A stretch of DNA of 64,000 nucleotides from Candidatus Uhrbacteria bacterium RIFCSPLOWO2_01_FULL_47_17 (GCA_001791305.1 MGEI01000003.1:13926-77925), one strand, 5' to 3'; numbered from the stretch's first letter, positions 5,285 through 59,142 are shown. The notes: generated by a model from the letters alone, not told the origin. Numbers and translations: made by a program.

Positions 5285-5418
5285 CCACAACTCGGTTGCG
5301 CTTTTTTATTTGTGTATGCTAAGCTTTTTGTACAACTTTATTCCTTCTGCCACAGGTGATTCGTGGCAGCGTCCCCTGGAGAACAACCTCGCAGGGAGTT
5401 TGACGTATGGAGAAAAAG

Positions 5419-5565
5419 TGGATGAGTGATGGAGTGGAAGAGTGAAGGAAGAAAAACAGTTTTTGTTTTTTGTAACGACTTTCTCCCTGTCTCTCACATT
5501 CCAAAATAAAAAAGATGCTCCCTTCTATCACTCTTCCACTCTGTCTTATGTCTTTCTCTCTCCAC
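5419..5565. repeat. Imperfect long palindromic element, family D copy 1 (core GAGTGGAAGAGTGA in both arms), overlapping the uvrB start
   Basis: Left arm gatgagtgatggagtggaagagtgaagga, right arm cttctatcactcttccactctgtc, AT-rich loop; related copy at 18338-18520. Confidence 0.45.
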
Positions 5566-7581: not shown

Positions 7582-10308
7582 ATGCAAGACAAAATTATCG
7601 TGCGGGGTGCGCGCGAGCACAATTTGAAAAATATCAATGTTGAGATGCCTCGCAACAAGCTTGTGTGTATCACAGGTGTTTCGGGTTCTGGGAAATCTTC
7701 GCTTGCGTTTGATACGATTTTTGCCGAGGGGCAACGCCGATATGTCGAATCGCTCTCGGCGTACGCGCGACAGTTTCTCGGACAAATGGAAAAACCCGAT
7801 GTCGATGATATTGAAGGTTTGTCGCCGGCAATTTCCATCGACCAAAAGGCTCACTCGAGTAACCCTCGTTCTACCGTGGCAACCATCACGGAGATTTATG
7901 ATTATTTGCGTGTGTTGTATGCGCGTGTTGGAAAGCCGCATTGTCCAAAATGTGGAGAGCAAATTCAGAAATTGACGAATGAGGAGATGGTGGATGTTGT
8001 TTTGGGAAAGGTTGGAGAGGAAATGAAAGGATCGCTGAAAATTCTCGCGCCTGTCGTCGTCGGAAGAAAAGGGGAGTACTACCAGTTGCTTTATGATTTG
8101 TATAACGCCGGATTCGCGCGTGTGCGCATCGACGGAAAAGAATATCGACTCGATGAGAAGATTGAACTTGCGCGCTATCAACAGCACACCATCGAGGTTG
8201 TGGTCGACACGATACCGGTGGTGGAGTTACTCGAGACCTCATCTTCGAGTGCGACCCCTCTCCCCCCGCCCTCTCCCTCGAAGGGAGAGGGGGCTCGGAA
8301 GGAAACGCGTCAGCGTTTGGCGGAGGCACTCGAAACGGCTGTCGAAAAAGGGAATGATGTTGCGACGATTGTGTATCCAGATAAATCCGAACAAATGCTT
8401 TCGGCAAAGTTTTCGTGTCCGAATGATGGGTTTTCGTTTCCAGAAATCGAACCGCGCCTCTTCTCGTTCAACTCACCTTATGGTGCCTGTCAGGCATGTA
8501 CCGGACTCGGAACGGTCGAATTGTTTTCGGAAGAATTGTGTGAGACATGTCACGGCGCGCGTCTGCGATCGGAAGCGCTTCATGTTTGGCTGCCGGGGGT
8601 GGGGAAGGGCGGAAAGGTTGTAGGGGTGCCCTTTGCCTGCCACCCGCAGCATTTGCGTAGGGTGGTGGGTACCCATGCAGGGAAAAAAAAGAAAACACCC
8701 GTTGCACCGATCGAATACACGGAATCAGACGAGCTGATTCCGATGGCCGAAAAGAAAGGGGTTTCGATCGTGGACATTACGAATATGTCCATCGACGAAG
8801 CGGTTTTGTATTTCAAGACGATCGATGTTTCAGAAAAAGATTTGGAGATTGCGGGTTCTGTTTTGCGCGAGATTGAAAATCGTTTGAAGTTCATGCTCGA
8901 CGTGGGCTTACATTATTTGTCTCTCGATCGTCGCGCAGGCACGCTCTCGGGTGGCGAAGCACAGCGCATTCGACTCGCCTCGCAGGTTGGCTCTCGACTT
9001 GTAGGCGCGATGTACGTTCTCGACGAGCCAACGATCGGACTTCATCAACGTGATAATGACAAGCTCATCAAGACGCTTGAGAATTTGCGCGATCTCGGGA
9101 ACACGGTGATTGTGGTTGAGCATGATGAAGACACAATCATGGCGTCCGACTACATGATCGAGATCGGTCCGGGCGCGGGAGTGCACGGCGGATATGTTGT
9201 GGCTGCGGGTGAAACGCCTGCGATTTTCGAAGACAAGAAGTCGCTCACAGCGGCGTATCTTCGAGGAGATCAAAAAATCGAAGTTCCGGCACAACGTCGC
9301 CAAAATGACGGCGGATCGATTCGTCTCAAGGGCGCAACACAAAATAATTTGAAAAACATTGATGTAGAATTTCCGTTGCGCAAGTTTGTGTGTGTGACGG
9401 GTGTTTCTGGTTCGGGAAAATCAACACTCGCGTACGACACGATGTACAAGACCATCTCGAAACGACTTTATGGAGGATCGCAAACGCCAGGGAAGCACAA
9501 AGCACTCCTCGGACTCGAGTACATCGACAAAGCGATCTTGATCGATCAGGACGCGATTGGTCGCACATCACGATCGAATCCGGCGACGTATACCGGAGCG
9601 TGGGCACCGATTCGTGAGCTGTACGCCGAAACCGCGGAAGCAAAATTCCGTGGATATAAAGTTGGGCGATTTAGTTTTAATCGCCCTGGCGGACGATGTG
9701 AACATTGTGAGGGACACGGACTCATTTCCATCGAAATGCATTTTCTTCCAACGGTGTACGTGACGTGTGATATTTGTAAGGGGAAGCGCTTTGATCGCGA
9801 GACACTCGAGATCACGTTCAAAGAAAAGAACATTCACGATGTTCTCGAAATGACGATCGAAGAAGCGACGGTGTTCTTCAAAGAGATTCCTTACATCTAC
9901 GACAAACTCGCGTCGCTGAACGACGTCGGTCTCTCGTATGTTAAACTCGGCCAACCTGCGCCTACGCTCTCCGGTGGAGAAGCACAGCGTGTGAAACTCG
10001 CGACGGAACTTTCGAAGCGCCAGACGGGACGAACATTGTATCTCTTCGATGAACCAACGACAGGTCTCCACTTCGCCGATGTAAAAAAATTGCTCGAAGT
10101 GATGCACTCACTTGTCGACAAAGGAAACTCGGTTATCGTCATCGAACACAACCTCGACGTAATCAAAACCGCAGACTGGATCATCGACATGGGCCCCGAA
10201 GGGGGAGACAAAGGCGGAACGGTTGTGTACGCCGGCACGCCGGAGGAAGTGGCGAGACACAAGGGAAGTCACACGGGGGAGTATTTGAAACGGGTGTTGC
10301 GTTCGTAG
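7582..10308 (+). CDS. uvrA: Excinuclease ABC subunit A (carries two in-frame repeat-element insertions)
   Basis: 908 aa; twin ABC ATPase domains ([14 protein letters not shown]..., [12 protein letters not shown]..., second [14 protein letters not shown]...), zinc-finger Cys pairs. Confidence 0.95.
8255..8295. repeat. Palindromic GC-rich element family A, in-frame inside uvrA (encodes ...[17 protein letters not shown]...)
   Basis: cccctctccccccgccctctccctcgaagggagagggggct; reverse-complement copy inside cysS at 30621-30660. Confidence 0.6.
8620..8678. repeat. Palindromic element family B, in-frame inside uvrA (encodes ...[22 protein letters not shown]...)
   Basis: gtaggggtgccctttgcctgccacccgcagcatttgcgtagggtggtgggtacccatgc; shorter copy gggtacgtaggggtgccctttatgggtacccatgcc at 41153-41188. 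Confidence 0.5.
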
Positions 10309-10385
10309 AGGAGGGTCGTGACCCTCATGCGTAGACGAACAAACCTGTTGCGAGAAAAATAGAAATAGAGGAAAATGAGAGACAT

Positions 10386-16520: not shown

Positions 16521-16617
16521 TGTGTCATTCCGACCGAGGAGTCTTCGAGGAGTGGAGGAATCCCGTAAACAAACGAGATTCCTCGGCTACGGTCGAACCT
16601 TCGCTCGGGATGACACA
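16521..16617. repeat. MITE-like palindromic element family C copy 1 (TIR GTGTCATYCCGASCGAGG)
   Basis: gtgtcattccgaccgaggag...cgctcgggatgacacag; reverse-orientation copy at 53914-54003. Confidence 0.5.
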
Positions 16618-18337: not shown

Positions 18338-18520
18338 GCCGGGAGGGAAGAAAACAGAGTGATTGAGTGAATGAGTGGAAGAGTGAATGAAAGAAGGCAG
18401 CTATTTGTTTAATGAGACAAGAAACAAATATGTTTCACGTTTCAAAAATAGTTAATTGTTTTTCCACCATCACTCTTCCACTCCATCACTCTTTCACTTT
18501 GCCTTTCCTCCCCTCCCGGC
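18338..18520. repeat. Imperfect long palindromic element, family D copy 2 (GAGTGAA-type repeats), between mraZ and rsmH
   Basis: gccgggagggaag...gagtgattgagtgaatgagtggaagagtgaatgaaag ... ccaccatcactcttccactccatcactctttcac...cctcccggc, with nested AT-rich central hairpin. Confidence 0.45.
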
Positions 18521-19805: not shown

Positions 19806-19810
19806 ACGAA

Positions 19811-19850
19811 AAACGTAGGGGAGGCTCGCGAGCCTCCCCTACGTTTTTTT
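19811..19850. terminator. Bidirectional rho-independent terminator (GTAGGGGAGGCTCGcGAGCCTCCCCTAC plus T8)
   Basis: 13-bp perfect stem and T-run between convergent ftsL and the minus gene at 19850. Confidence 0.6.
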
Positions 19851-29586: not shown

Positions 29587-30996
29587 ATGCAGCTCTATAA
29601 CACTCTCACCCGATCAAAACAGGAATTCAACCCAATTCAAAACAAACGCGTCGGTGTCTATTCCTGTGGCCCAACTGTGTATTGGTTTGCGCACATCGGA
29701 AACATGCGCGCGTTTCTGTTTGCGGATCTTTTGTGCCGGGCGCTTCGGATGAATGGGTACGCCGTCGAACAAATCATGAACATCACAGACGTTGGGCACC
29801 TCACAGATGATGCAGATGAAGGGGAAGACAAGATGATGGTTGCCATGAAACGGGAGGGAAAAACCGCGTATGACATAGCGGAATTTTACGCGCAAGCGTT
29901 TTTTAAGGACCTCGAGGCACTCAACATCACACCAGCTTCAAGATACCCTCGAGCAACGGAACACATTGCCGAGCAGATTGAAATGATCGAAGCACTCGAG
30001 AAAAACGGATTCACATATCAAACAAGTGATGGAATTTATTTCGATACCTCGAAGCTCGCAGATTACGGTCGACTCTCGGGACAGAAGTTGGATGAGAAAC
30101 AAGCAGGCTCTCGCGTCGACATGGGGGAGAAAAAAAATGCGACGGATTTTGCGTTGTGGAAATTTAGTCCCACAACAGGCTCGGGAAATACAAAAAGGCA
30201 AATGGAATGGGAATCTCCGTGGGGAATTGGTTTTCCTGGATGGCACATCGAGTGTTCAGCCATGTCGAAGAAATATCTTGGTGTGCCGTTTGATATTCAT
30301 ACAGGAGGGATCGATCACATCGCGGTTCATCATGAGAATGAAATTGCACAGACAGAGGGGGCGGAAGGGAAGCTTGAGGCGAATTATTGGATGCATAACG
30401 AGTTTATTACGGTTGATGGTGGCAAGATGTCGAAGTCGCTTGGAAATGTTTATACGATCGAGCAGCTTGTCGAAAAAGGCTTCGACCCGCTCGCGTTTCG
30501 ATATCTTTGTTTACAAGCGCACTACCGATCGAAGCTGAATTTTACTTGGGAGTCTCTCGAAGCTGCACAGAATGCACTGAATCGTCTTCGAAGTACTATC
30601 CGAGAATGGGACGCACCTCTAGCCCCCTCTCTCTTCGAGGGAGAGGGCGGGGGGAGAGGGATCGCGCTCGAAGCGCGCTTCTCCCAAGCGATCAATGACG
30701 ATTTGAATACACCCGAGGCTCTCTCAATCCTATGGCAACTCGTCGACTCCGACTATCCAACTTCCGCAAAAGCGGAATCACTCTTGAAATTTGATCAAAT
30801 TCTCGGTTTACACCTCGATCAGTTTATCGGGAAGTCCGTCGAGATTCCTCCCGAAGTACAGAAGCTTCTCGACGAGCGCGCGCATGCTCGCACAGAAAAG
30901 AACTGGAGTGAATCCGATCGTCTGCGCACAGAAATTGAGGAACGCGGATTTATCGTTGAGGATAAACCAGAAGGACAGAATGTGCGAGAAATGTGA
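29587..30996 (+). CDS. cysS: Cysteine--tRNA ligase (carries an in-frame family A element)
   Basis: CGPTVYWFAHIGNMRA (HIGH), KMSKSLGN (KMSKS), zinc Cys residues; ATG at 29587. Confidence 0.9.
   Translation: MQLYNTLTRSKQEFNPIQNKRVGVYSCGPTVYWFAHIGNMRAFLFADLLCRALRMNGYAVEQIMNITDVGHLTDDADEGEDKMMVAMKREGKTAYDIAEFYAQAFFKDLEALNITPASRYPRATEHIAEQIEMIEALEKNGFTYQTSDGIYFDTSKLADYGRLSGQKLDEKQAGSRVDMGEKKNATDFALWKFSPTTGSGNTKRQMEWESPWGIGFPGWHIECSAMSKKYLGVPFDIHTGGIDHIAVHHENEIAQTEGAEGKLEANYWMHNEFITVDGGKMSKSLGNVYTIEQLVEKGFDPLAFRYLCLQAHYRSKLNFTWESLEAAQNALNRLRSTIREWDAPLAPSLFEGEGGGRGIALEARFSQAINDDLNTPEALSILWQLVDSDYPTSAKAESLLKFDQILGLHLDQFIGKSVEIPPEVQKLLDERAHARTEKNWSESDRLRTEIEERGFIVEDKPEGQNVREM
30621..30660. repeat. 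Palindromic GC-rich element family A, inverted copy in-frame inside cysS (encodes ...[16 protein letters not shown]...)
   Basis: agccccctctctcttcgagggagagggcggggggagaggg is the reverse complement of the uvrA copy with 1-2 mismatches. Confidence 0.6.
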
Positions 30997-34188: not shown

Positions 34189-34806
34189 ATGAACGAAGAC
34201 GAATTCGAATTTGAACCAGACCCTTTCAAAATAGGCGGGGTTCCGAGACCCCGCGGAGAAGATCCAGATGTCCGATCAAAGCTTGCGCTTCAAATGTTGA
34301 AACAGGTTCAGCAATCCCTTGCGCATGTCATCCAGCTTTTGGAGGATGGAGACACCGCGCGCGCCACGCTCGGAATGGTGAATTTCGTTATGGGCAAAAA
34401 AGCGTTTGAGCAAACGCTGGAACGAGAAACGGGCGCGCGAACACATGAAGGTGTGTTTGACGGGATGTTTGTTGTCACGTCCGAGGGCGCGCGTCATCCT
34501 GTTCCAGAGAATTATGCGTCGAAATCAAAACTTGTCGAAGGGGACATGATGAAACTCATTGTGACGCCGGATGGACGACATGTGTATAAACAAATCGCCC
34601 CGGTTGAACGAAAGCGCATTGTGGGCGTTTTAGGTCAAGATATACTTACCAACACCCCCGTTGTCATGGTTCAAGATGTTGTGTATAAAGTTCTTCAAGC
34701 AAGCGTTTCGTATTTCAAAGCCGTTCCCGGTGATGAAGTCGTAATTCTCGTCCCGGGAAGCGGAAGATCCGTTTGGGCCGCTCTCGAACGTATTGTTTCC
34801 AAATAA
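34189..34806 (+). CDS. Hypothetical protein, possibly co-transcribed with the ATPase
   Basis: 205 aa, 30 nt downstream of the ATPase stop; no known domain. Confidence 0.35.
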   Translation: MNEDEFEFEPDPFKIGGVPRPRGEDPDVRSKLALQMLKQVQQSLAHVIQLLEDGDTARATLGMVNFVMGKKAFEQTLERETGARTHEGVFDGMFVVTSEGARHPVPENYASKSKLVEGDMMKLIVTPDGRHVYKQIAPVERKRIVGVLGQDILTNTPVVMVQDVVYKVLQASVSYFKAVPGDEVVILVPGSGRSVWAALERIVSK

Positions 34807-34818
34807 TGACATGAGTGT

Positions 34819-36462
34819 ATGTTGGCGTTGTATCGAACGTATCGTCCCGCTGTTTTTGCTGATGTCACGGGCCAAGAACACGTGACACAGACCATTCAGA
34901 ACCAGATTTTATCTGGTTCTGTTTCGCATGCGTATGTTTTTACGGGGCCGAGAGGGATCGGAAAAACAACCGTTGCGCGCCTTCTCGCAAAAGTGGTGAA
35001 TTGTGTTTCTCGAAACGGCACAGAACCGTGTAACACGTGTGAGGCATGTCTCTCCATCATAAGCGGAAAAGCTATGGATGTGTTTGAGATTGATGCTGCT
35101 TCGAACACCGATGTCGACAATGTGCGTGAGAATATCATTCGCAACGTGCGGTTCGCGCCGTCTGTGCTTACAAAAAAAGTGTACGTGATTGATGAGGTGC
35201 ACATGCTCTCAACGAGCGCATTCAATGCACTCCTAAAGACGCTCGAAGAACCGCCGGCACACGCTCTGTTCATTCTCGCCACAACAGAGATTCATAAAGT
35301 GCCGGCGACTATTTTGAGTCGCTGTCAGCGTTTTGATTTTAAAAAGATCTCGAGGGAAGCCATGGTGACACGTCTTGCCTCGATCGTGAAACAAGAAAAA
35401 CGAAAAGTGGATGAGGATGTTCTTGTTGGAATCGCAAAACATTCCGGTGGATCTGAGCGTGATGCGGAAAGCATGCTCGGTCAAATTTTGTCGCTCGACG
35501 AAGGAAAAATTACCATGGACATTGCCTCGCTCGTGCTTCCAATAACCACGGACGTGATTGTGAACGAATTCATCGACGCGCTCTCAGCGCGTGATGCCGC
35601 ATCCGCCATCAGACAACTCAATGCACACATTGAACAGGGGGTCGATCTTACGCATTTTCTTGATGATGTCATTTCAACCATGCGCGATCAACTACTCGCA
35701 TCCGTCGCAGATCGAAGCGCATCAGACCGCATGTCATTCTTGAATCACGCCATTGAACTTTTTCTCGCCGCACGCCGTCACATGAGAACAGATGAGATTC
35801 CACAGTTACCGGCGGAGCTCGCGATTGTAGAGTTGTGTATGGATGTGGATCGTAGGGGCGCGGTCTTGTGCCCGCCCTCGAATGTAAATTTTAAACAACA
35901 AGGGGTTGATTCGGGTCGAGTCATCGAGACCTCTGTTATGGGTGGGGTCACCAGACCTCACCACAATGCAATCGTTATCGAGAAGCCCATCGCCGAAAAA
36001 CCCATCGAAGAACCCCACGTCACCCTCGAACCCATCACCGAAACAGCCACCACCGTTCCTGTCATGGAAATGGTCGATCAGTTCGTCCTTGAGCCGGTTA
36101 CGATCGAACCATTCACAACAAGTGAACAAGTGTTTGACAGCGTCCCCGTCATCAGTGTTGATGAAGTCCGTCGCAAATGGCCGGAGGTGTTTGCGCAAGT
36201 CCAAGAGTGCAACGCATCGCTCCCACTCTTTTTGCAAGCGTGTGAAGTGAACAGTGTTGGAAATGATCTTGTTGAACTCGCGTTTGAATATGATTTGTAT
36301 GTGCAAACCGTGAACAAAGAAAAAAATCGCAAACTCGTCGAGAGCATTCTCGAACGTGTCCTCGGCAAAGCGGTAAAGATCCGCGCCGTGCTAGGTAAAG
36401 CAAAAGAGAAAGATGAAGTCGTCGCATCACTCGTGGATGCGTTTGGTGGGAGCACGGCATAA
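34819..36462 (+). CDS. dnaX: DNA polymerase III subunit gamma/tau
   Basis: LYRTYRPAVFADVTGQEHV, Walker A GPRGIGKTT, zinc Cys cluster CVSRNGTEPCNTCEAC, SRC motif. Confidence 0.9.
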   Translation: MLALYRTYRPAVFADVTGQEHVTQTIQNQILSGSVSHAYVFTGPRGIGKTTVARLLAKVVNCVSRNGTEPCNTCEACLSIISGKAMDVFEIDAASNTDVDNVRENIIRNVRFAPSVLTKKVYVIDEVHMLSTSAFNALLKTLEEPPAHALFILATTEIHKVPATILSRCQRFDFKKISREAMVTRLASIVKQEKRKVDEDVLVGIAKHSGGSERDAESMLGQILSLDEGKITMDIASLVLPITTDVIVNEFIDALSARDAASAIRQLNAHIEQGVDLTHFLDDVISTMRDQLLASVADRSASDRMSFLNHAIELFLAARRHMRTDEIPQLPAELAIVELCMDVDRRGAVLCPPSNVNFKQQGVDSGRVIETSVMGGVTRPHHNAIVIEKPIAEKPIEEPHVTLEPITETATTVPVMEMVDQFVLEPVTIEPFTTSEQVFDSVPVISVDEVRRKWPEVFAQVQECNASLPLFLQACEVNSVGNDLVELAFEYDLYVQTVNKEKNRKLVESILERVLGKAVKIRAVLGKAKEKDEVVASLVDAFGGSTA

Positions 36463-40416: not shown

Positions 40417-41148
40417 TTATTGTTTATACCTCTTCACAAACCGTTTCAAAATTTCCATCGGTACGGTGATGTTCTCGCGTCTCACTTCATCCTTCACTTG
40501 TTCCGCTTGATCAAGAGGGAAGTAGCCAAGATGTTTGTAGATTTCAATACGCACGCACATTCCTTCGACATCGAGTTCTGGGTGAAATTGTGAGGCATAC
40601 ACATTTTGTCCCATACGGAACAGATGTGGTGGACAGTCTTTCGACGATGCGAGTAATGTTCCGCCTTCCGGAACTCGCGCCGCCGCCTCTTTGTGTCCAA
40701 CAAATCCGCGGAATTTTCGAGGAAGCCCTGCGAGCAGTGGATCGTATGTACCTTCTTCCGTCACGAACAGATCGACGGCGCCTGGTTTTTCATGAAAGTC
40801 ATGTGTGATTTCGACATCAAGTGCCTTTGTGAGAATCTCAAGTCCGTAGCAAATCGCAAAACACGGAAAATCTTTTTCAACCACTTCACGCATGAGCGGC
40901 ATGAACTTTTCTTCGGCCTGCTTTTGCACTTCCGTTTTTTTCTCATCCGGATCCCCTGGATTCCAAGGTCCTCCACCGATCATCACTGCCGAGTAGTCCT
41001 CGAAGTTCACCTCCGGCACACCGACTTGCTCAACACGCACGCGATGCACATCATCCGCCGAGAGTTCTCCGAATTTCAAAATCGCTTCATACTCACCATC
41101 TGATGCCGCGTCTTCTGGTCGAATCTGGAGAAGGAGAATGGGTTTCAT
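40417..41148 (-). CDS. Class I glutamine amidotransferase-like protein
   Basis: CFAICYGLE (nucleophile elbow Cys) and QFHPE (His-Glu) in GATase1 spacing. Confidence 0.55.
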   Translation of the reverse strand: MKPILLLQIRPEDAASDGEYEAILKFGELSADDVHRVRVEQVGVPEVNFEDYSAVMIGGGPWNPGDPDEKKTEVQKQAEEKFMPLMREVVEKDFPCFAICYGLEILTKALDVEITHDFHEKPGAVDLFVTEEGTYDPLLAGLPRKFRGFVGHKEAAARVPEGGTLLASSKDCPPHLFRMGQNVYASQFHPELDVEGMCVRIEIYKHLGYFPLDQAEQVKDEVRRENITVPMEILKRFVKRYKQ

Positions 41149-41152
41149 AGTC

Positions 41153-41188
41153 GGGTACGTAGGGGTGCCCTTTATGGGTACCCATGCC
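41153..41188. repeat. Palindromic element family B, short intergenic copy
   Basis: gggtacgtaggggtgccctttatgggtacccatgcc shares both termini with the uvrA copy at 8620-8678. Confidence 0.45.
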
Positions 41189-41195
41189 TATTCAT

Positions 41196-41942
41196 TTATT
41201 CAAACTGTAAATACATCGCGGCATGGTCGGAAACCTCGTCGGGGAGTACTTGAAACTTGTTCACGAGAATTTCAGGCGATACAAGCGTGTAGTCCGCAAA
41301 TTTTTCCGGCTTTGTGTAGAACGAGGTACGTGTTGAGGTGATGTTGTTCTCGCGGATCAGATTACGCAAGCCGAGCATCTCGAATTTTTTTAAACTTTCC
41401 GTTTCAGGAGTGAGATTAAAATCGCCGCATAACACAACGGGATTGTCGATTGACTTAATCAACTCAATAATGCGATCCGATTGTGCGAGTCGATCTGGAG
41501 TATCCGTTTTGCCCTGTCCGTTCCAAAGTCCATGAAAATTCATGATCGTCCGATTTCCCTGTGGAGTCTCAATCGTAACATATTGCACGTTGCGTGCATG
41601 CGTCCCAATATCTCCTTCCGGAAGATATCCTTTAAAGTGATGCACAAAGACTTCGCCTTCCTCGATAACAGACAAATCTTTTTTGATGAGCATCATGAGG
41701 CCATAATCATTCAAGACATGGGGACGGAAATACACAGCATGATTCGGAAGGAGAGCGGAAATTTCTTGCATGCCGCTTGTCATGACATGTGTTTGATCGA
41801 TCTTGTCCTTTAAGGATTCATACGGTGCTGACCAAATCTCTTGTAAACAAAACACATCCACATCTTTGTATGTTTCAAAAAACGCAAGCAGATTTTCTTT
41901 CCCGGCGCGTCCGCCCCAGGTGTTGAGAGAGATAAGTTTCAT
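41196..41942 (-). CDS. Endonuclease/exonuclease/phosphatase (EEP) family protein
   Basis: MKLISLNTWGG...DVFCLQE...GDFNLTPE...SDHAAMYL: EEP catalytic motifs. Confidence 0.6.
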   Translation of the reverse strand: MKLISLNTWGGRAGKENLLAFFETYKDVDVFCLQEIWSAPYESLKDKIDQTHVMTSGMQEISALLPNHAVYFRPHVLNDYGLMMLIKKDLSVIEEGEVFVHHFKGYLPEGDIGTHARNVQYVTIETPQGNRTIMNFHGLWNGQGKTDTPDRLAQSDRIIELIKSIDNPVVLCGDFNLTPETESLKKFEMLGLRNLIRENNITSTRTSFYTKPEKFADYTLVSPEILVNKFQVLPDEVSDHAAMYLQFE

Positions 41943-41943
41943 A

Positions 41944-43158
41944 TTACTTTCCAAGCGCATTTAATCTTGCCGCAAGATCGATGTTTTTTGGTGTTGTCAC
42001 AAGAAGGATTAAACTGATGACGCATGTGACAACACCAATGATGCCGATCGTTTGCAAATGTCCGAATGCGCCAGAGAGGGATCCCGCAAGGACCGGACCA
42101 ACAATAAAGCCAAGATTGGTAAATGAATCCTGAAGTAATTCAATATCCTGTTCTTTGTTTGGAACATCAGAGACGTAATCTGCATACGCGCCGCGAATGG
42201 CGGGCCAGGTAATGCCTGTACAGACCGCACAGAGAAAACTAAGAAAGATAAGCGCGAACGGATTGCGGACGACCAAAAAAAGCATCATGAGTGTGGAGCC
42301 AACGAGAAGGGTGACAAATGCAACGCGTTTTTTTGAACGCTTTCCAATAATTTCTCCAATGATCCAACCAACAATTAAAAGAGGAAGTTCATGGGCAAAA
42401 AGAAAGAGTCCATTAAATTCAAATGGCCACGATGTTGGAAGTTCAATAAGCGGAGCGATCATCCAATACGTGGATTCGATCATCATGAGCATGGTTGAGA
42501 CCAAAAAAACGGGAAACAAGATACTGACCATGTCTTTGTGAAGATGCATTTCGGAAAAAAACGTGACAAGATGTTTTTTTGTTTTGGGTGTGTGTTTTTC
42601 TGGAGAGATGCGTCTGAGAACAAGATAAAAAATAAACGCGATTCCAAGAAATCCCCAGGCAAAGTAAAAAAGACTTGCGTCTAAGGAATCCTTCATGAAG
42701 GTGCTTGCAAGGATTGGCGCGATCAAATATCCAAACGCAATAAATACATCCACAACTCCGGCGCTCGACGCATGTTCTTCTTTTGGTTGTGTGCGTCCAA
42801 TAAAATCGAGCGTTCCGCAATTATACAAATCGTAATAAATGCCCCAGACAATCATTCCAAGAAACAAAAGCGGCATCGATTGCCCTTTCCAAAGAATGAG
42901 TGGAAACGTGGCAGCCATGAGAAGCATGACCAAAAACATGCGCCGATAGGTTGCTTTCTTTAAAATGTGTGTAAGCAGAAAATCAAAGATAATTCCCGCA
43001 ATCGATGAGCTTCCAATAATAAGTCCCATCTGCGCTTCTGATAACCCGGCGCCCGTAATAATAAGCGGCACATGAAACATCATCATTCCATCAAAAATGA
43101 GGAAAAAGAATAACATGATGCATAAGACATAGAGCGAACGGTGTGTTTTTCCATACAT
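41944..43158 (-). CDS. MFS transporter
   Basis: 12 predicted TM segments, MFS-like loop motifs; start trimmed to MYGKTHRS. Confidence 0.65.
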   Translation of the reverse strand: MYGKTHRSLYVLCIMLFFFLIFDGMMMFHVPLIITGAGLSEAQMGLIIGSSSIAGIIFDFLLTHILKKATYRRMFLVMLLMAATFPLILWKGQSMPLLFLGMIVWGIYYDLYNCGTLDFIGRTQPKEEHASSAGVVDVFIAFGYLIAPILASTFMKDSLDASLFYFAWGFLGIAFIFYLVLRRISPEKHTPKTKKHLVTFFSEMHLHKDMVSILFPVFLVSTMLMMIESTYWMIAPLIELPTSWPFEFNGLFLFAHELPLLIVGWIIGEIIGKRSKKRVAFVTLLVGSTLMMLFLVVRNPFALIFLSFLCAVCTGITWPAIRGAYADYVSDVPNKEQDIELLQDSFTNLGFIVGPVLAGSLSGAFGHLQTIGIIGVVTCVISLILLVTTPKNIDLAARLNALGK

Positions 43159-53913: not shown

Positions 53914-54003
53914 GTGTCATCCCGAGCGGAGCCGAGGGATCTCACATTTATAAAACGCGAGATTTCTCCGTTCGTCGATGACTCCTCAGTCGGAATGACA
54001 CAG
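53914..54003. repeat. MITE-like palindromic element family C copy 2 (reverse orientation) between ftsI and murF
   Basis: gtgtcatcccgagcggagccgagggatc...ctcctcagtcggaatgacacag; aligns end-to-end with 16521-16617 in reverse complement. Confidence 0.5.
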
Positions 54004-54017
54004 ATGCCAAAAATATT

Positions 54018-55334
54018 ATGAAAAAAACTCTTGAAAAACTCCTCGCCAACAAAGCTCGCGCTTTCCTCGACAAGCACCACCCAATCATTATTGGCGTTAC
54101 TGGCTCCGTTGGGAAAACCTCGACGCGTCATGCGATCGCGACAATTCTTTCGGCGAAGTATTCGGTTGTGACCTCGATTGAGAATTACAATAATGAGCTT
54201 GGGTTACCTCTCTCGATTCTTGGCGAGAAGTCACCGGGAAAGAATGTGTTTGGATGGTTGAAGATTCTGTGTTCCTCGAAACGCAAAGCGGCGGAGGTGT
54301 ATGTGCTTGAATATGGCATTGATCATTCAGGTGACATGGATGCGCTTGTGGCGATTGCAAAACCATCGATTGCGGTGATGACCGCGCTCTCGCCAGTTCA
54401 TGTGGAATTTTTTTCATCGGTTGAACAACTCGGTGAAGAAAAGGCGAAACTGCTCGCAGCGGTTCCCTCGGACGGACTTGTTGTGTTGAATGCGGATGAC
54501 CCGAATGTTGTTGGACTCGGAAGCCATGCAGTTGCGCCAATTGTCACGTATGGGTTTCGAGAAACAGCGGATGTACACGCAACAGATTACGCGATCGAAA
54601 CGCGATCGGATTTTTCCTTCCAACCCGGCGAACAATTTTCGGAATTGCATGTGAATGTTCATGTATCGAATGCACGGGATGGTCATGACCATCCCCTACA
54701 ATCGATGGAATCGATTTTGATTACGCTTACGAATCAGCTTGGCAAAAGTGCAGTCAGTTCTGTGCTTGCGGCCATCGCTGTTGCGAAGCATCTCGAACTG
54801 TCCGATGATCAAATCCTCTCTAAACTTCCTGAACTCAAAAATGAACCCGGCCGCATGAATCCGATTCCGGGAATCAAAGGTTCACTCATTCTCGATTCAA
54901 CCTACAACGCCGCGCCTGCGTCCATGATGGCCGCTCTCTCGGTTTTGTCCGAGTTTCAGCCGGTCGAAAATGCAAAACGCATCGCGGTCCTCGGACACAT
55001 GGCAGAGCTTGGTGCGCAAACGGAACAAGAACACAGAATGGTCGGCATGCGTGCGGCGGAAGTGTGTGACCGATTGATTACGGTTGGAGAAGCGGCGCAT
55101 CATATTCGTCATGCCGCCATTGAAGCGGGAATGCCGGAAGAACATACGGCGGAATTTGCGCATCCCGTCGAGGCGGGACGATGGCTGGATCACGAAATCA
55201 AAAAAGGAGACATTGTGCTTGTAAAAGGTTCACAAAGCGCACGCATGGAAAAGGTTGTGAAAGATGTCATGGCCGAACCACTTCGAGCGCGGGAGTTGCT
55301 TGTGAGGCAGTCAAAGAAGTGGATCAAGTCATAA
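54018..55334 (+). CDS. murF: UDP-N-acetylmuramoyl-tripeptide--D-alanyl-D-alanine ligase
   Basis: IIGVTGSVGKTSTRH (P-loop), Mur ligase middle and C-terminal domain motifs. Confidence 0.85.
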   Translation: MKKTLEKLLANKARAFLDKHHPIIIGVTGSVGKTSTRHAIATILSAKYSVVTSIENYNNELGLPLSILGEKSPGKNVFGWLKILCSSKRKAAEVYVLEYGIDHSGDMDALVAIAKPSIAVMTALSPVHVEFFSSVEQLGEEKAKLLAAVPSDGLVVLNADDPNVVGLGSHAVAPIVTYGFRETADVHATDYAIETRSDFSFQPGEQFSELHVNVHVSNARDGHDHPLQSMESILITLTNQLGKSAVSSVLAAIAVAKHLELSDDQILSKLPELKNEPGRMNPIPGIKGSLILDSTYNAAPASMMAALSVLSEFQPVENAKRIAVLGHMAELGAQTEQEHRMVGMRAAEVCDRLITVGEAAHHIRHAAIEAGMPEEHTAEFAHPVEAGRWLDHEIKKGDIVLVKGSQSARMEKVVKDVMAEPLRARELLVRQSKKWIKS

Positions 55335-58688: not shown

Positions 58689-58830
58689 CAACCGGCGCGA
58701 CGCGCCATGGAGAAAAAAAAGCTTTACCGGTCTGTAGAAACACAGCCGGTTTTTTTGTTTTGGACTTTCTGTTATGATTTCGTTGCAAAGCAGGGCGGGT
58801 CGTGACCCGCCCCTACACATACATATATTT

Positions 58831-59142
58831 ATGCAAAAACAAATCCAATGGGTCGACTTGATTGCTTGGGATCCTGTTCAAAAAAAGGGGACGATGTGTG
58901 CCCGTGTTTTGTTTCGTGATGAAAAGATTCAATTTCAAGGTGAACTCGCGCTTGTGAGTGAATTGAAAGATGGACTTACCACATATCCGGACGCGCAGTT
59001 GGTGTATCCGGAAGATGGAATGAAATTTTTGGAAGCGGTCGCCGCGTCGTTTCGCTCTCCCTCACTGCTTGCAACAGACATTCAGAGCGCAGATGAACCG
59101 TCGCCTTTTGGTGATCGTGCAATGACATTTAAACAGGAATAA
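58831..59142 (+). CDS. Small hypothetical protein, first gene of a two-gene operon with the atypical kinase
   Basis: 104 aa from the ATG at 58831; stop overlaps the kinase start (ATGA-type junction at 59142/59144). Confidence 0.3.
   Translation: MQKQIQWVDLIAWDPVQKKGTMCARVLFRDEKIQFQGELALVSELKDGLTTYPDAQLVYPEDGMKFLEAVAASFRSPSLLATDIQSADEPSPFGDRAMTFKQE

Follow-up and report, generated by a model that had tools for sequence, protein, structure and literature searches.

Rickettsia palindromic elements (RPEs), the subject of work by Ogata et al. in 2000, are said to be selfish palindromic repeats that lie in frame in essential genes and are tolerated in surface loops. RPE-1 elements are about 100-150 bp long. 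In Escherichia coli, the Y1 HUH enzyme TnpA_REP (RayT; PDB 4ER8) recognises a GTAG foot together with an imperfect hairpin on single-stranded DNA. The cut-and-rejoin model for E. coli TnpA_REP and the IS200/IS605 transposases is summarised by Quentin et al. (2018, BMC Genomics 19:475; PMC6006769), in whose classification TnpA_REP subclass 2.4 is equivalent to RAYT group 4 of Bertels. The REPs of this subclass are of the canonical long type, their stems beginning at the foot with three G-C pairs in a row, and they occur together with 'double-foot' GTAG...CTAC variants; the subclass is patchily distributed across phyla, and its enzymes carry REP-coded peptides right after the HUH motif (PMC6006769).

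The superfamily of GTAG-tagged repetitive extragenic palindromes (REPs) was defined by Di Nocera, De Gregorio and Rocco (2013, BMC Genomics 14:522; PMC3733652) in a survey that distinguished 24 numbered families in eight phyla, Patescibacteria not among them, and that classed the short RPE-4 and RPE-6 as CGTC-tagged. The mark of the superfamily is a 5' GT[AG]G tetranucleotide at the foot of the hairpin. These repeats have stems mostly of 6-9 bp with frequent G.T pairs, the TAG of the tag can serve as a stop codon, and they are found singly, as dimers, and in variants whose stems have changed in a compensatory way (PMC3733652). Intragenic, in-frame copies are concentrated in uvrA, uvrB, uvrD, polA, recBCD, dnaE2, and tRNA-synthetase genes, and uvrA genes with two separate REP inserts are known from Thioalkalivibrio and Opitutus terrae (PMC3733652).

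The window analysed here, the whole 64-kb stretch of Uhrbacteria DNA, carries two copies of a palindromic element, family B, that is probably a GTAG-tagged REP of the subclass 2.4 type, a unit moved by a Y1 HUH enzyme (RayT), with the copy in uvrA as a survivor. Since it bears the GTAG tag, the element can be placed in the known REP/RayT class, for which uvrA and uvrB insertions are documented (PMC3733652). The long copy, a putative GTAG-tagged REP composite of 59 nt, occupies 8620..8678 on the plus strand in frame in uvrA, where translation gives a peptide starting at codon 347 (position 8620) of an intact 908-aa ORF. The short copy (41159..41187, plus strand) is intergenic and consists of a single canonical REP unit, GTAG-GGGTGCCC-TTTAT-GGGTACCC, with an ATGC tail. 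The region around it (41153-41188) falls within a 47-nt spacer between two minus-strand genes, one for a class-I GATase (40417..41148) and one for an Exo_endo_phos protein (41196..41960); the copy is antisense to both, 8 nt beyond the stop of the upstream gene and 10 nt ahead of the ATG of the next. Within the 64 kb, the 15-mer head GTAGGGGTGCCCTTT and the 12-mer tail GGGTACCCATGC each occur exactly twice, in the two family B copies only, and the pattern GTAGGGGTGCCCTTTN{2,32}GGGTACCCATGC has 2 matches in the window against 0.00 expected from 100 dinucleotide-preserving shuffles. A preliminary description of this DNA had proposed a repeated palindromic element with one copy in frame in uvrA, quoting sequences at 8620-8678, 41153-41188, and 731-752. 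All three are present exactly as quoted, and the proposal stands for the first two, which have exact termini in common and both fold as hairpins.

The outer stem of both copies is formed by GGGTGCCC and GGGTACCC, 8 bp including one G.T pair, with GTAG directly before it at the foot of the stem-loop and three G-C pairs (GGG...CCC) at the stem base; the 3' TGC of the element is able to pair with the GTA of the head. Written as single-stranded DNA, the top strand of the unit is GTAGGGGTGCCCYTTRTGGGTACCC. REPs are imperfect palindromes of 20-40 bp whose stems measure 6-13 bp. The short copy fits this format, being 25 nt long (29 nt if the tail is counted) with a stem of 8 bp and a loop of 5 nt, and the 59-nt copy, longer than the 20-40 bp range, is read as a composite or dimer of the kind allowed in the GTAG-REP superfamily. 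Both copies are predicted to form hairpins as RNA, and the hairpin folds better on the plus strand because the G.T pair turns into A.C on the complement. For the short copy, predicted RNA energies (56 nt, 41145-41200) are -22.6 kcal/mol on the plus strand and -13.7 kcal/mol on the minus strand, and DNA energies (41159-41187) are -7.1 and -5.4 kcal/mol; the corresponding values for the long copy are -35.1 and -22.6 kcal/mol as RNA (81 nt, 8610-8690) and -13.8 and -11.0 kcal/mol as DNA (8620-8678). An Rfam scan of the window at the gathering score returned two tRNAs only and no family B match. The terminator scan was empty at 41153-41188, the short copy has no T run, and a terminator role for it was rejected; the long copy lies inside an ORF, and family B lacks the features of an intrinsic terminator.

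The two copies differ in their interior, where the long one has 32 nt in place of AT. Nested in this interior is a further hairpin, GCCACCC...GGGTGGT, and GTAGGG recurs there at 8657. A BLAST search against all available DNA found no relatives of it, an 18-nt interior match in L086, in a coding stretch that translates there to DVVVGTHAL, being read as a coincidence, and the exact pair of family B termini had no match in the JGI metagenomes. In the preliminary description, the short copy had been taken for an internally deleted version of the long one. The same order of events belongs to an explanation by a MITE- or RPE-like element, with the 59-nt uvrA copy as the full-length form and the intergenic copy of 29-36 nt as its deletion product, and the fact that the termini are exactly alike and only the interior differs is in its favour. 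When a genome collection was scanned with the pattern GTAGGGGTGCCCN{5,35}GGGTACCC, however, 130 of 135 matches among those listed had the 25-nt form GTAGGGGTGCCC-5nt-GGGTACCC, and the 32-nt interior was found in none of them. Apart from the hairpin arms, the copies also have no terminal inverted repeats, nor are they flanked by direct repeats that would mark a target-site duplication, and the second GTAGGG head in the interior fits a tandem or nested composite better. A MITE is 70-300 bp long, has inverted repeats of 15-30 bp at its termini, and duplicates its target site, whereas the copies here measure 29 and 59 nt, with 8-bp arms and no direct repeat, and this identification was rejected. 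We therefore consider the deletion scenario very unlikely. Because of the match counts, the short form is, on sequence grounds, the canonical unit and the 59-nt uvrA copy a putative derived composite, which might consist of two GTAG-headed pieces in tandem or of one unit with a nested hairpin. Nor does the hairpin in nrdJ at 731-752, previously listed as a weak relative of family B, belong here: it has only GGGGTGCCC in common, carries an ATAG head, has its own twin at 34231-34260, and represents a different hairpin family without a net insertion relative to the locus L004.

Family B is accompanied by further GTAG units. The window has 8 occurrences of the heptamer GTAGGGG where 1.05 are expected, a count attained by 0 of 100 shuffles, and seven of the eight sites, both family B copies included, head a GC-rich hairpin. 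A perfect stem of at least 7 bp follows 5 of the 6 sites outside family B, compared with 4.8% of control NNNGGGG sites. The 64 kb contain two family B copies plus five other GTAGGGG-headed hairpins. Among the other GTAG units, GTAGAGGAGGGTCGTGACCCTCATGC (10305..10330, plus strand) provides the uvrA stop codon with its own TAG (10306-10308), and the uvrA stop in L002 carries an orthologous unit. The unit GTAGGGGCGCGGTCTTGTGCCCGCCC (35852..35877, plus strand) lies in the reading frame of dnaX, where it falls in the linker joining the ATPase domains to DnaX_C; GTAGGGGATGGTCATGACCATCCC (54676..54699, minus strand) is antisense within the gene for a Mur ligase, in the stretch that separates the M and C domains; and GTAGGGGCGGGTCACGACCCGCCC (58793..58816, minus strand) is found either at the 5' end of ORF 58774-59142 or immediately upstream of it. 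Between convergent genes at 19815..19842, and assigned to neither strand, there is a 'double-foot' REP, GTAGGGGAGGCTCGCGAGCCTCCCCTAC, a perfect GTAG...CTAC palindrome flanked by A and T runs, and 19808-19849 is terminator-like on both strands. Such double-foot units coexist with canonical ones both in the window, at 19815-19842, and in L002, at 1096. Of the six other units, five have the same GGG...CCC stem foot as the two family B copies, and the one at 10305 is degenerate there (AGG...TCA). While the intergenic family B copy is extragenic as the name REP implies, the copy in uvrA is not, nor are the units in dnaX and the Mur ligase gene, and the intragenic units lie between Pfam domains, in linkers. 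Their location does not exclude REP membership, because intragenic exceptions have been published, notably in uvrA and uvrB.

The unit is widespread in other genomes, where it was matched at more than 118 loci, a lower bound, against about 1 expected by chance at a 5-nt gap (estimated from the collection size). Among the matches listed, the commonest 5-nt loops are CTTGT, CTCGT, TTCAT, TTAAT, and TTTAT, and the phyla represented are Cyanobacteria, Planctomycetes, Chloroflexota, Desulfobacterota, Campylobacterota, Thermotogota, Bacteroidota, and Patescibacteria. The hosts in these listed matches include Chamaesiphon (with numerous copies, frequently arranged in inverted doublets), Fimbriiglobus, Chloroflexota/Dehalococcoidia, Desulfobacterota, Sulfurovum, Ectothiorhodospiraceae, Thermotogaceae, Bacteroidota, Saccharibacteria, and another Patescibacteria MAG. 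Behind the GTAGGGG head, the matched loci contain 65 distinct stems that pair perfectly (Watson-Crick or G.U), with similar loops and against a control rate of about 5%; so many different perfect stems behind a fixed head point to compensatory stem change.

The same matches connect the unit to a candidate enzyme. Among the matches listed, seven loci have the unit within or adjoining a member of a single ORF family; five of the seven ORFs score above the Pfam cut-off for Y1_Tnp (IS200-like, PF01797), and two of the seven loci are from Patescibacteria (L041, Saccharibacteria, and L104). This ORF family has about 8000 detectable homologs, many of which bear the JGI name 'REP element-mobilizing transposase RayT' and whose named hosts include Candidatus Portnoybacteria and Patescibacteria. 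In the alignment of these RayT proteins, the HUH motif MPNHxHGI is followed directly by VG[AV]PLVG[AT]...GQPQGIAPT, and the peptides VG[AV]PLVG[AT] and GQPQGIAPT are coded by the forward and the reverse GTAG unit. Thus, a strand-specific GTAG hairpin is repeated in the window, and the same unit is tied to RayT genes elsewhere, CPR genomes included. Even with matches up to E<=10 allowed, two local profiles and an approximate E. coli RayT query detected no RayT gene in the window (64 kb) or across some 84 kb of loci from sibling species.

The uvrA gene (7582..10308, plus strand) is an intact ORF of 908 aa that keeps its conserved motifs and takes its TAG stop from a GTAG unit. By its UvrA homologs, the organism falls near Candidatus Uhrbacteria within the Patescibacteria. 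Its family B copy lies in a lineage-specific variable loop, residues 340-392 (8599..8757, plus strand), delimited by structure and homolog alignments: residues 339 and 393 both align to chain residue 443 of the solved UvrA 2R6F, placing the loop as an insertion relative to that structure, and the stretch between ALHVWLP and SIVDIT is hypervariable among UvrA homologs. UvrA orthologs at 89-93% identity do not have the B-coded peptide in the protein alignment, and the DNA alignment agrees; the family B copy is absent from siblings. Compared with L004 and L002, the window uvrA is net 36 nt longer in the DNA alignment, with the flanks GAAGGGCGGAAAGG and AAAAAGAAAACACC common to all of them. Since the surrounding low-complexity linker differs too, the event is a replacement within that linker, and there is no empty site such as a clean insertion would show. 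An AlphaFold2 model of UvrA built on a 27-sequence alignment was poor (mean pLDDT 63, pTM 0.40), showing the B loop as coil with pLDDT below 50, the family A stretch likewise as low-confidence coil, and some conserved parts at similarly low confidence; on this modelling, the loop that hosts the B copy is probably disordered. The family A element (8243-8295) also lies inside uvrA, about 330-430 bp upstream of the B copy, and UvrA does accommodate two different elements, as noted previously.

In siblings, the UvrA hot spot is a GGAAAGG-rich, tandem-like linker. This is compatible with an origin of the uvrA segment by local evolution of a low-complexity Gly/Lys/Val linker that came to resemble the intergenic hairpin by chance, or with a chimera made at a repeat during assembly. 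Between the family B copies, though, 27 bases are exactly the same, for which the chance expectation is 0.00, an ENA assembly contig under a separate name (L001) has the identical uvrA copy, and the uvrA ORF is intact with its conserved motifs; we find either origin hardly credible.

The same UvrA loop is occupied differently in related lineages. In L005 it holds another GTAG hairpin, GTAGGGGCTGGTCTCGTGCCAGCCC, whose start is closer by 18 nt to the conserved upstream flank (TGGYTGCC) than that of the B copy in the window. At the protein level, P0009 has an unrelated palindromic-element peptide in this loop (CHPERSEGS...GLPQNDI), and its near-twin P0007, with only 2 residue differences outside the loop, is without it. 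One UvrA loop thus holds three different elements across sibling species. UvrB offers a parallel: at one site, L005 carries a B-type unit coding VGVPLVGT and L002 carries a double-foot unit, and there is no unit at that site in the window, L004, or L006. Because L002 and L005 have the same flank downstream of the site, the sequences suggest in-place turnover of elements in UvrB. That different hairpins repeatedly occupy, and replace one another in, the same loops of UvrA and UvrB among sibling Uhrbacteria is the most useful lead to come from the locus.

Such turnover also bears on a role for the hairpins as signals. Under this alternative, family B would be a structural RNA or DNA signal selected in place, such as an mRNA stabiliser, a processing site, an attenuator, or a protein-binding site, and the likeness between copies would stem from function or gene conversion. 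The G.T pairs do give the hairpin strand specificity, the sibling unit at 19808-19849 resembles a bidirectional terminator, and many REPs act as RNA, as argued by Di Nocera et al. (PMC3733652). The intergenic B copy, however, is antisense to both of its neighbours, forms only a weak hairpin on that strand, and has no T run, and a signal placed in a variable protein loop, absent or replaced by other elements in siblings, is hard to motivate. We judge selection in place to be distinctly improbable as the general explanation. Co-option of individual copies is compatible with the REP/RayT reading, and 19808-19849, for example, may serve as a terminator.

If family B is a RayT-mobilised REP, its functional unit would be the hairpin of 25-29 nt, GTAG-GGGTGCCC-loop-GGGTACCC. 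On the model of E. coli TnpA_REP and the IS200/IS605 transposases, a Y1 HUH enzyme (RayT), either encoded elsewhere in the genome or now lost, would recognise the GTAG foot with its hairpin in single-stranded DNA and would cut and rejoin the DNA there, spreading or exchanging units. Copies landing in genes would persist only in permissive disordered loops or inter-domain linkers, in frame and without the TAG acting as a stop. The uvrA copy would be one such survivor, in the lineage-specific loop after zinc module 2. Mobilisation by RayT in this Uhrbacteria genome, the order of events, and the neutrality of the insert for UvrA function are what we infer from these comparisons, and we know of no CPR organism in which RayT-driven REP transposition has been directly demonstrated.

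A bolder possibility, which we hold to be rather unlikely, is that an active RayT/REP system in Patescibacteria is repeatedly rewriting the same surface loops in proteins of nucleotide-excision repair and replication (UvrA, UvrB, DnaX), such that siblings differ mainly in the occupant of the loop. REP turnover would then be a general source of lineage-specific insertions in CPR proteins, and the bias toward repair genes would reflect biology, such as hairpin or single-stranded DNA exposure and an interplay with repair proteins, as opposed to mere tolerance.

Searching the available literature for repetitive extragenic palindromes together with Patescibacteria yielded no relevant paper. REPs inside uvrA and uvrB are already known from other phyla (PMC3733652); what is added here is the host lineage and the occupation of a UvrA or UvrB loop by different elements in sibling species. 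The GTAG-REPs, and by association RayT subclass 2.4, are extended to Patescibacteria, and the published and still unexplained preference of REPs for uvrA, uvrB, and replication genes gains a clear further case. For annotation and for alignments of CPR proteins, the odd 20-residue segment of UvrA finds its explanation in a selfish hairpin repeat and not in a functional domain. With three elements in one loop across siblings, insertion, turnover, and tolerance become open to study with population metagenomes.

Compared with the known systems, family B resembles the RPEs in being a selfish palindrome tolerated in frame in surface loops, in effect the same way of working, and differs in its tag (GTAG, not CGTC), in the greater length of RPE-1, and in its unrelated host and apparently unrelated sequence. 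With the E. coli REP/BIME system it has the GTAG foot and hairpin in common, and the mechanistic model proposed for family B is borrowed from there; the E. coli repeats, unlike those described here, belong to subclass 2.2, with longer, bulged stems and extragenic copies. The likeness to the subclass 2.4 REPs (PMC6006769) extends to the three G-C foot pairs, the double-foot units, the RayT peptides coded by REPs, and the patchy spread over phyla, all recovered with the B unit, the difference being that the window has no RayT gene, so that here we infer the link to a cognate enzyme. In relation to the GTAG-REPs (PMC3733652), family B departs in its host, an Uhrbacteria-like member of the Patescibacteria, and in a uvrA copy that is apparently a 59-nt composite with a unique interior, and it agrees in every published trait considered, among them the GTAG tag at the foot, the 8-bp stem, the G.T pair, the use of TAG as a stop codon, the intragenic copies in uvrA and uvrB, and the presence of two elements in one uvrA gene.

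Of the window's seven GTAG units (REP hairpins headed by GTAG), five have the trinucleotide TGC just beyond the stem at the 3' end, at 8676-8678, 41185-41187, 10328-10330, 54676-54678 (minus strand) and 58793-58795 (minus strand). With one wobble, each of these terminal TGCs could base-pair to the head's GTA, an arrangement that resembles a degenerate "double foot" (GTAG...CTAC). The window also holds a REP with the double foot itself, at 19808-19849, which sits between convergent genes with A5 and T8 runs at its flanks; both of its strands score as terminators.

GTAG units are also found inside the genes for RayT, the Y1 transposase linked to REPs. Our protein alignment of RayT (A2) places two in-frame GTAG units, one forward and one reverse, directly 3' of the HUH motif in the genes at L041 (Saccharibacteria), L052, L057, L034 and L104 (Patescibacteria), with stems that vary among the orthologs (VGVPLVGT, VGAPLVGA, VGATLVVA and VGAGLVPA). 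In-frame GTAG units following the HUH motif have already been published for RayT of subclass 2.4 (PMC6006769). A Desulfobacteraceae contig carries three units of family B, the GTAG-tagged family with a copy in uvrA, spaced about 380 nt apart with identical flanks (L114, 5906-6691). Among the matches listed, the Chamaesiphon B units (L023, L025, L045, L061 and others) often occur as inverted doublets with about 10 nt between the two units, a REPIN-like arrangement.

We observed two different GTAG REP variants at one site of UvrB in two sibling species (L002, 1069-1167; L005, 491-574). The two variants have the downstream flank AACCGAT in common, and the same site is empty in three other siblings; this looks like turnover of REPs in place. 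Peptides of the palindromic-element type, CHPERSEGS...GLPQNDI and VILSAAKDL, fill the UvrA hot spot of the ortholog P0009 and, in L002 and L005, a second hot spot of UvrB. These peptides look like the same kind of element as a third palindromic family in the window, a 45-nt inverted pair (16521-16565 and 53958-54002) that is 84% complementary.

Family A is likewise palindromic, with two 53-nt window copies that are 94% complementary: one in-frame in uvrA (8243-8295, residues about 218-241) and the other in cysS, in inverted orientation, where it separates the catalytic domain from the DALR domain (30621-30673). The uvrA segment is missing from most UvrA orthologs and partly present in P0002. 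The preliminary description had also counted a hairpin in nrdJ (731-752) as a weaker relative of family B; it belongs instead to a separate, ATAG-headed family, ATAGGCGGGGT-N5-ACCCCGCG, whose two window copies (729-758 and its twin at 34231-34260) are 80% alike. The nrdJ copy lies in a variable linker, with no net insertion relative to the sibling locus L004.

Other repeats in the window include purine-rich, GAGTGAATGAGTGGAAGAGTGA-like sequences arranged both directly and inverted (5402-5477, 5503-5541, 18343-18410 and 18438-18501), located in front of uvrB and between mraZ and the gene that follows it. Twin hairpins at 1009-1048 and 2108-2160, 85-86% alike, have a common GAGACC...GGTCTC stem followed by T runs and may be terminators of one shared type.

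In zinc module 2 of the window UvrA (8488-8553, residues 303-324), only 13 residues separate the two Cys pairs, and the protein therefore lacks the insertion domain of roughly 120 residues present in the UvrA of 2R6F.
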